Assembly (NCBI RefSeq): GCF_056746865.1
Contig: NZ_CM163382.1
DNA: 64,000 nucleotides
Direction: 5' to 3' (one strand)
Shown: piece by piece, positions 12,075 to 13,433 of the stretch
Layout: each line of letters begins with the position of its first letter
How positions within the stretch are numbered: position 1 is the first letter of the stretch
Notes under the pieces: generated by a model
Databases searched by the model: none
What the model saw: only the letters and a program-made list of their open reading frames with translations
Told to the model about the DNA's origin: nothing
Translations under genes and position numbers: made by a program

Positions 12075-13433
12075 ATGAAAAGAAAAATTATTCCCGTGCT
12101 AATCGGTTGTACGCTCTCTTTCTCTGCCCTGGCGGCACAACCTACGGCTGAGCGCTATGTCGTCAGTTTTCCAGAAGGCACGCACGTGAACTACGCCGGC
12201 GCATTTGCCAGTGCATTCCCGAACGGCCTTCCGGTTGGGATAGGTTCTGGCCTGCTGTTCACCGGTAAACAGGGCGATGCCCTGACATTCGCAACCATTA
12301 CCGATCGCGGTCCGAACGCGGATTCACCGAAAGAGGGGAAAAACGAAACTAAAATTTTCGTTACGCCAGATTTCGCGCCGCTGCTGATGACGATTCGTGT
12401 ACAAAACGGCAAAGCGGAGGCCATCGATCCCCGTCCTCTGCATGACGATAAAGGCGCGATCAACGGTCTGCCGCTGGCAAGCGACGTGATTGGCTCCACC
12501 AATGAAGTGGCCTTCAGCGACACGTTACATAGACTGAAGGGGGATAATCGCGGGCTGGATACGGAAGGGATCACTCCGGATGGTAAAGGAGGTTACTGGC
12601 TGTGCGATGAGTATGGCCCGTTCCTGATTAACATCGACAGTAAAGGGAAAATCCTGGCAATCCACGGTCCGCAGGCGGCGGAAGGGGAAAAAGCGATTGC
12701 GGGCGGTTTGCCAAATATCCTCAAATGGCGTCAGGCGAACCGCGGCTTTGAAGGCCTCACCCGTATGCCGGACGGGCGTATTATTGTCGCCGTGCAAAGT
12801 ACGCTGGATATCGACGCTAAGAGCAAGAAAAAGGCGCTGTTTACGCGTCTGGTGAGCTTCGATCCGGCAAGCGGAAAAACCGCGATGTACGGTTATCCTA
12901 TCGACAGCGCGGCCTACAGCAAAAACAGCGACGCTAAAATCGGAGACATCGTGGCGCTCGATAACCAGCACATCCTGCTGATCGAACAGGGAAGAGATAA
13001 AAACAACAGAATGCGTAACCTGATTTACGAGGTCGATCTCAATAAGGCGAGCGACCTGTCAGGCTTCGACAAGCCGGGTGAGTATCCGGAGTTTGATGAT
13101 GAGAAAACCCTGTCACAGCGCGGCATTACCCTTGCGCAGAAAACGCAGGTTGTTGATCTGCGCTCCTTGGGCTGGCAGCAGGAGAAGGCTGAAGGGTTGG
13201 CGCTGATCGACAGCAAAACGCTGGCGGTGGCGAACGATAACGACTTTGGCGTGAAGGTGGCGATGCAACATCCGGTCGAGGGCAAGACATTCAAGGATTA
13301 TCGGGTGAACGCGGAAGGAAAGCTGACGCTTGACGACAAGCAGGTTGAAACGACCCTCAGAGTGAAGCCACTGGAGAAACCGGAGTCTGACAGTGAACTG
13401 TGGATTGTGACGCTGCCGGAAGCGTTGAAATAA
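12075..13433 (+). CDS. Secreted esterase-like/phytase-like family protein
   Basis: 452 aa from MKRKIIPVLIGCTLSFSALAA (signal peptide); overall resemblance to 'esterase-like activity of phytase' beta-propeller-type proteins; family assignment from memory. Confidence 0.6.
   Translation: MKRKIIPVLIGCTLSFSALAAQPTAERYVVSFPEGTHVNYAGAFASAFPNGLPVGIGSGLLFTGKQGDALTFATITDRGPNADSPKEGKNETKIFVTPDFAPLLMTIRVQNGKAEAIDPRPLHDDKGAINGLPLASDVIGSTNEVAFSDTLHRLKGDNRGLDTEGITPDGKGGYWLCDEYGPFLINIDSKGKILAIHGPQAAEGEKAIAGGLPNILKWRQANRGFEGLTRMPDGRIIVAVQSTLDIDAKSKKKALFTRLVSFDPASGKTAMYGYPIDSAAYSKNSDAKIGDIVALDNQHILLIEQGRDKNNRMRNLIYEVDLNKASDLSGFDKPGEYPEFDDEKTLSQRGITLAQKTQVVDLRSLGWQQEKAEGLALIDSKTLAVANDNDFGVKVAMQHPVEGKTFKDYRVNAEGKLTLDDKQVETTLRVKPLEKPESDSELWIVTLPEALK

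Follow-up and report, generated by a model that had tools for sequence, protein, structure and literature searches.

The closest described counterpart of the gene analyzed here is orf34 of the SRL pathogenicity island of Shigella flexneri YSH6000, the product of which is 99.78% identical to the protein encoded in the window, i.e., the whole stretch of 64,000 nucleotides that was analyzed (PMC6980539). The original description of orf34 went no further than a similarity to a periplasmic protein of Campylobacter, and the Pfam name was given to it upon reannotation in 2020 (PMC6980539). The order of genes in the SRL island is the same as that in the window, namely the fec operon, IS1, orf34, IS66 (orf35-37), and a Gp2-family gene (orf39). 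Comparison of the published table with the annotation of the identical E. coli region showed the same gene and the same neighbors as in SRL orf33 to orf39, as expected of SRL-type island cargo, without any gene-level difference (PMC6980539); the window represents the Escherichia coli chromosome version, beside yjh/sgc/fim.

Members of the Pfam family PF13449, or proteins described as "phytase-like," are strongly induced under phosphorus limitation in Nodularia, Synechococcus WH8102, and Phaeodactylum, an induction that in cyanobacteria and diatoms occurs alongside that of phosphatases. Phytase-like proteins rank with the most abundant proteins of the P-stress response in Synechococcus WH8102, and P depletion raises a secreted protein of this type in Phaeodactylum by 7.4 log2. 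Exported propellers with acidic metal centers that are induced by phosphate starvation include the beta-propeller phytases (BPP) and the Ca/Fe alkaline phosphatases PhoX and Psip1 (for Psip1, PMC11098088).

Genomic setting and origin of the gene

The six-frame list of open reading frames (ORFs) contained a single long ORF in this part of the window, at 12060-13433 (+; 457 aa). Alignment of the upstream DNA of six genera showed that relatives have CTG or AAG in place of ATG 12060 but keep both ATG 12075 and the GGA preceding it; ATG 12075 is therefore taken as the true start. A weak Shine-Dalgarno-like GGAT (12062..12065, +) may serve as ribosome binding site 9 nt 5' of this ATG, with GGA present in five of the six genera aligned. 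The resulting CDS (12075..13433, +), assigned from the ORF list, Pfam, RefSeq, and an AlphaFold2 (AF2) model to a PF13449 phytase-like, predicted beta-propeller protein of 452 aa, corresponds to WP_000823243.1 in the RefSeq annotation of 100%-identical E. coli records, and an earlier reading of the letters alone (the sequence-only reading) had placed its 452-aa protein correctly. Since dN/dS against Enterobacter orthologues was ~0.09, the ORF is a real gene. Its GC content is 54.2% (GC3, 63%) versus 51.1% for the window, near the backbone-like composition proposed in the sequence-only reading but a little above it. No intrinsic terminator was found 3' of the stop codon in a terminator scan. 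The gene is intact and had been catalogued before, and the finding of the sequence-only reading adds nothing to the existing annotation.

The gene is preceded, in order, by fecIRABCDE, IS1, IS debris, and a ymgB/ariR-like gene and is followed by IS66, after which come CP4-like island genes (Gp2, YfjI, Ag43, and YeeU/CbtA) and then yjh/sgc/nan/fim. Remnants of IS5/IS1182 and IS3 transposases, annotated by RefSeq as pseudogenes in the 100%-identical record L001, form the upstream boundary (~11468..11794, −), and the IS66 element forms the downstream boundary (13672..15831, −; ORF list and RefSeq annotation), with a fragment of a DUF6404 gene (13555..13632, −; RefSeq annotation of the identical record) in between the gene and IS66. 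The position between a transposase remnant and an IS66 element, which the sequence-only reading had claimed, is borne out by the RefSeq annotation of the identical record. IS66 comprises tnpC (13672-15057), tnpB (15107-15454), and tnpA (15451-15831), all on the minus strand. The tnpC product (461 aa) is called intact by RefSeq; one stretch of it looks like an internal deletion or fusion relative to full-length IS66 transposases. The genes that come after IS66, at 16186-17015 (−) and 17269-17874 (−), code for two zinc-ribbon proteins that overlap and for a protein of the "inovirus Gp2 family" and are the equivalents of SRL orf38-39. The gene of the YmgB/AriR family of biofilm/acid-resistance regulators (11085-11342, +) lies in an AT-rich stretch (GC content of about 0.40) and sits between the IS1/IS3 debris and the IS5/IS3 remnants, just upstream of the PF13449 gene; two YmgB paralogues are located ~7 kb upstream of the orthologue in a Pantoea locus (L003), which may be coincidence. 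Colinearity with E. coli MS6198 at 100% identity extends over the window apart from the segments 18805-22128 and 33734-36370, which correspond to ~3.3 kb in place of 0.7 kb and to an extra ~2.6 kb after the YeeU/CbtA region.

The CDS was present in 2,261 of 5,426 complete E. coli genomes, always at an identity of at least 99%, so that the island copy occurs in ~40% of these genomes, and the ORF was full length and intact in ~2,190 genomes; 66 plasmid copies were included in the set. PLSDB contained 69 plasmids with the gene, of which 64 carried near-identical copies in Escherichia/Salmonella and 5 were Pantoea megaplasmids with native genes. A divergent allele of 450 aa (71% identity), found on 28 contigs, is likewise labeled E. 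coli, and some E. coli strains therefore carry another lineage of the PF13449 family. Orthologues with 85 to 91% amino acid identity were found in a dozen or more species of Enterobacter and in Lelliottia and Pseudenterobacter; those of Pantoea, Pluralibacter, Yokenella, and Scandinavium were ~80% identical, those of Buttiauxella, Cedecea, Serratia, Yersinia, Cronobacter, and Pectobacterium 60 to 66% identical, and those of Wohlfahrtiimonas, Tolumonas, Aeromonadaceae, and Neisseriaceae ~50% identical. Two further records, an "uncultured Ruminococcaceae" contig (CAJKJS010000287.1) with a copy 99% identical to the E. coli allele and a "Chryseobacterium sp. 18061" contig (CACSKA010000015.1) with an Enterobacteriaceae-type orthologue in yjiA-cstA synteny, look like binning or assembly contamination in public genomes.

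In Enterobacter, Lelliottia, Pluralibacter, and Yokenella, the gene occupies a fixed chromosomal slot, (yfaZ)-gene-yjiA-yjiX-cstA, and for that reason is regarded as an ancestral backbone gene in these genera. The sequence-only reading had called the gene island cargo and had named conservation as a core gene of another genus as a result that would speak against it; the gene is indeed bounded by IS elements in E. coli, and such conservation elsewhere was indeed observed. A syntenic core gene in Enterobacter and its relatives does not contradict cargo status in E. coli, and it identifies the kind of genome that acted as donor. DNA similarity to Enterobacter-type genomes (~86%) is confined to 11920-13439, i.e., the gene plus 155 bp of promoter, and homology to Enterobacter stops 2 to 6 nt past the stop codon. 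Identity to the Enterobacter orthologue is 91% at the amino acid level and 86% at the nucleotide level. As dS against Enterobacter orthologues was 0.55 to 0.75 at the above-mentioned dN/dS, the island copy stems from an unsampled Enterobacter-related lineage and has been under purifying selection. Neighborhoods in Enterobacter, Pantoea, Serratia-like genomes, Cronobacter, Wohlfahrtiimonas, Tolumonas, and others held no conserved functional partner gene, and phosphorus-metabolism neighbors were absent from every lineage examined.

A Pho box upstream of the gene

In E. coli K-12, phoA, pstS, phoB, and phoE are established PhoB targets. Their promoters share an 18-bp box, in which two TGTCA-type heptamers flank an A/T-rich 4-nt spacer and which replaces the −35 element. 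When these promoters were read as controls with the scan used for the window, mismatches to CTGTCATNNNNCTGTCAY numbered 1 in phoA (−10, TATAGT), 0 in pstS (−10, TATTTT; 2 mismatches in the promoter-proximal box), 2 in phoB (−10, CATAAT), and 3 in phoE (−10, TAAAAA).

What is new in this analysis is a Pho box upstream of the PF13449 gene; it went unnoticed in the sequence-only reading and tells more about function than any other clue. The Pho-box-like putative PhoB site, ATGTCAT-TTTC-CTGACTC (12007..12024, +), lies at the place of the −35 element and has 3 mismatches to CTGTCATNNNNCTGTCAY; a putative −10 hexamer, TATGGT (12035..12040, +), which conforms to a conserved TAnnnT, follows exactly 10 nt 3' of the box and ends 34 nt before ATG 12075. 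The upstream region therefore has the architecture of the Pho regulon, with 7-bp repeats at an 11-bp period that replace the −35 element and are spaced 10 nt from the −10 hexamer. The window and the K-12 Pho promoters share the 10-nt distance to a TAnnnT-type −10 and a box that is located 45 to 90 nt before the ATG; the window promoter has a single box only, with 3 mismatches as in phoE, and the PhoB site is a predicted one. By itself, such a match carries little weight, as a scan of the 64-kb window alone gave 14 matches with at most 3 mismatches versus 9.6 expected, which is not significant, and the significance of the box therefore rests on its position and conservation.

The upstream DNA of six genera was unalignable apart from one block, which consists of the Pho box, the 10-nt gap, and the −10 hexamer, and this combination was also the sole conserved upstream block across 31 genera. 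The window and 80 species loci were scanned for their best match to CTGTCATNNNNCTGTCAY over the 200 nt that precede the gene; the best box had at most 2 mismatches in most of them and was located 30 to 62 nt 5' of the ATG in nearly all loci, usually with TAnnnT at +10. A box in the same place was found with at most 3 mismatches in 28 of the 31 genera and with at most 2 mismatches in 21, and it was perfect in Franconibacter, Biostraticola, and Cronobacter (locus L010); TAnnnT was present at +10 in 22 of the 31 genera, its T1 and A2 being nearly invariant. For comparison, among 8,382 background windows of 200 nt from the same loci, 0.11% had a match with at most 2 mismatches and 0.93% one with at most 3. 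Three background windows combined at most 2 mismatches with TAnnnT at +10 and probably are genuine Pho promoters of neighboring genes. With one sequence per genus (n = 31), information content was 1.32 bits/position in the heptamers and 0.90 in the −10 hexamer, whereas the 10-nt gap had 0.30 and the 5' flank only 0.10. Across these genera, the predicted Pho box/−10 block is a clean phylogenetic footprint. Degenerate boxes only, with 4 to 6 mismatches, were present in Pectobacterium, Brenneria, and Samsonia.

The E. coli box is the weakest among close relatives, with 3 mismatches and TGACT in the second half-site, i.e., one mismatch more than in Enterobacter (CTGACTC versus CTGACAC), and all Escherichia copies, chromosomal as well as plasmid borne, carry this 3-mismatch box. 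A generic scan found no sigma-70 −35/−10 promoter upstream of the gene, which is consistent with a PhoB-dependent promoter and is not evidence in itself. From these comparisons, we infer that the E. coli allele is controlled by PhoB. The putative Pho box has travelled with the gene onto the fec/SRL island and lies within the DNA shared with Enterobacter-type genomes. A second upstream block with the repeat TTTCCGT-n5-TTTCCGT (11920..11975, +) marks how far, as seen by blastn, the transferred DNA reaches on the 5' side of the gene; the block has 78 to 80% blastn identity to three Enterobacter loci (L013, L019, and L087) and may be the site of a second regulator. In an IncK plasmid allele (L094), an 11-nt deletion in this block removes one TTTCCGT repeat.

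Export, family, and fold of the product

By inspection, the N terminus, MKRKIIPVLIGCTLSFSALA/AQP, combines a basic n-region with a hydrophobic core of 16 residues and an A-x-A site, which together make up a candidate Sec signal peptide of 20 aa (12075..12134, +) with a predicted signal peptidase I (SPase I) cut before AQP. Homologues share the A-x-A site, A20 being invariant in 16 sequences, and the AF2 model gives the N-terminal helix a low pLDDT. A lipobox-like LIGC puts a Cys at residue 12, and a bacterial lipoprotein processed by SPase II was considered and rejected, as Cys12 is missing from the orthologues of Buttiauxella (P0088), Cronobacter, Yersinia, and Serratia. Because the A-x-A site is conserved and Cys12 is not, the protein is taken as a Sec/SPase I substrate and not as a lipoprotein. 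The n-region, h-region, and A-x-A site, as inspected and as conserved in relatives, thus indicate export to the periplasm, in agreement with the classical signal peptide recognized in the sequence-only reading. PhoX is exported by the Tat route. The window protein, with its predicted Sec export, differs from PhoX in this respect, and a twin-arginine (RR) motif is absent from its N-terminal MKRKII.

Searched against Pfam, the protein matched PF13449, "Esterase-like activity of phytase," with 148.6 bits against a cutoff of 27.6 (E = 4.4e-43); the match covers residues 55 to 391 and positions 4 to 284 of the 284 in the profile. No other Pfam family was matched at an E value of ≤0.1, and no NCBIfam family model matched the protein. 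The RefSeq name of the protein is the same as the Pfam name, and the family named in the sequence-only reading is hence the one that Pfam and RefSeq give; the Pfam search proposed there as a check returned no unrelated family. The label "phytase/esterase" is the Pfam name alone, with no measurable similarity behind "phytase." Beta-propeller phytase (3-phytase, PF02333) was rejected in the absence of a Pfam match and of any BPP chain in the PDB profile search at an E value of ≤10, and the six-bladed BPP fold was not the closest structural neighbor either. The alkaline phosphatase PhoX (PF05787) was likewise rejected, with no Pfam match, no RR motif, and no place among the structural neighbors; both BPP and PhoX were absent from the structural neighbor lists and from the PDB profile search. 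Many PF13449 relatives are multidomain proteins with SLH, 5'-nucleotidase, or nuclease domains, including proteins in which UshA-type 5'-nucleotidase modules or a ParB-like nuclease are fused with the PF13449 domain, and the E. coli protein is the minimal single-domain form.

The AF2 model, which was built on 71 diverse homologues, is all-beta, with a pLDDT of 95.8 and a pTM of 0.92. As modeled, the fold is a single-domain beta-propeller without a close solved relative, and it combines the propeller with conserved Asp/Glu residues as expected of PF13449. A Foldseek search of the PDB yielded generic propellers only, at TM scores of <0.38. Matches to the structural neighbors extended over just 204 to 262 residues; the nearest folds were YjiK, glutaminyl cyclases, NHL domains, glycoside hydrolases, and a Ca-activated nucleotidase. 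The C-terminal domain of E. coli YjiK (PDB 3qqz; SdiA-regulated, PF06977) and the human soluble Ca2+-activated nucleotidase (2h2n) are structural neighbors at 13 to 17% identity, and these matches miss about half of the 432-residue mature protein. Sequence and profile searches of the PDB gave no homologue, only blade-level likeness to designed "Pizza" propellers, and no solved structure of the PF13449 family. In a survey of 71 sequences with identities down to 30%, D77, D162, E164, E179, E226, D291, E304, E373, D388, and D390 were nearly invariant among acidic residues, and so were R78, R219, R223, K288, and K371 among basic residues, a set such as a metal-dependent site that binds an anionic substrate may have.

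Proposed function and alternatives

Taken together, these results lead us to favor, with slightly better than even confidence, a PhoB-induced, periplasmic, and probably metal-dependent phosphohydrolase. At low phosphate, the gene would be transcribed from its PhoB-dependent (Pho regulon) promoter, and the product, a Sec-exported periplasmic single-domain PF13449 beta-propeller, would act as a metal-dependent (probably Ca2+) phosphohydrolase that frees phosphate from organic phosphorus in the periplasm, with nucleotides or other phospho-esters or anhydrides as likelier substrates than phytate. The guess at the substrate tilts to nucleotides or nucleic-acid-derived esters because of the 5'-nucleotidase and ParB-like fusions and the resemblance to the Ca2+-activated nucleotidase. 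We infer both enzymatic activity and metal dependence. By analogy, and not by homology, the mode of action of the protein probably resembles that of exported propeller phosphatases under Pho control (PhoX, Psip1, and BPP), with a metal center on the propeller face. On this reading, the gene and its own 155-bp promoter were captured from an Enterobacter-like chromosome into E. coli/Shigella; they are now part of an island of the SRL/KpLE2 type, where they lie among IS remnants beside the iron-citrate operon fec. A role in phosphate scavenging rather than that of a true phytase is most likely. We can propose only tentatively, and on balance with some doubt, that the single-domain PF13449 proteins of Enterobacterales, the island copy among them, constitute an uncharacterized class of PhoB-induced periplasmic metallo-phosphohydrolases structurally distinct from PhoA, PhoD, PhoX, PafA, Psip1, and BPP.

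The proposed regulation could matter in that a family without a characterized member or solved structure has a textbook Pho promoter across Enterobacterales, and the E. coli/Shigella copy is carried, together with the operon for ferric-citrate uptake, by a widespread island and by plasmids. Should the protein be a phosphate-scavenging enzyme of a new type, the Pho regulon of E. coli would comprise more than the K-12 set, and a long-standing "hypothetical" of the SRL island would gain a testable role, and if the proteins do form a new class of metallo-phosphohydrolases, the fec/SRL island would bundle iron and phosphorus scavenging.

The alternative that survives best, although we consider it unlikely, is that of a Pho-regulated periplasmic protein that does not hydrolyze phosphorus compounds, such as a binding protein, a lectin-like propeller, or an envelope-remodeling factor. 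The functional heterogeneity of the nearest solved folds, which range from YjiK and glutaminyl cyclases to NHL domains and glycoside hydrolases, is compatible with such a protein, and so is the literature, in which we found no biochemically characterized PF13449 member within what was searchable and nothing useful on PF13449, WP_000823243, or COG4222. The constellation of acidic and basic residues, conserved down to 30% identity, the fusions to 5'-nucleotidase and nuclease domains, and the recurrent induction under P limitation alongside phosphatases in cyanobacteria and diatoms argue against such a protein.

Less probable still is that the gene is a passive hitchhiker in E. coli, carried along on the fec/IS island, misregulated, with a decaying Pho box, and contributing nothing. 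The IS-scarred setting and a second half-site with one mismatch more than that of Enterobacter are what such a passenger might show, and with all E. coli copies at least 99% identical to each other, selection within E. coli is unmeasurable. However, the full-length ORF has stayed intact in those ~2,190 genomes and on 64 plasmids, the promoter block has been kept with exact spacing, phoE works with an equally degenerate box, and dN/dS on the lineage to Enterobacter is 0.09, all of which speak against a mere passenger.

A genuine Ca2+-dependent phytase, acting as a functional analogue of Bacillus BPP in the use of dietary phytate by E. coli, is very improbable. The Pfam/RefSeq name, the predicted periplasmic location, the propeller with its many conserved acidic residues, and the predicted Pho control would all suit it, and the Pantoea orthologue has been listed in the literature as a "phytase-encoding sequence" from annotation alone. 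A phosphohydrolase of the kind favored here would correct this misleading label, which has already been used for phytase gene counts in genome papers.
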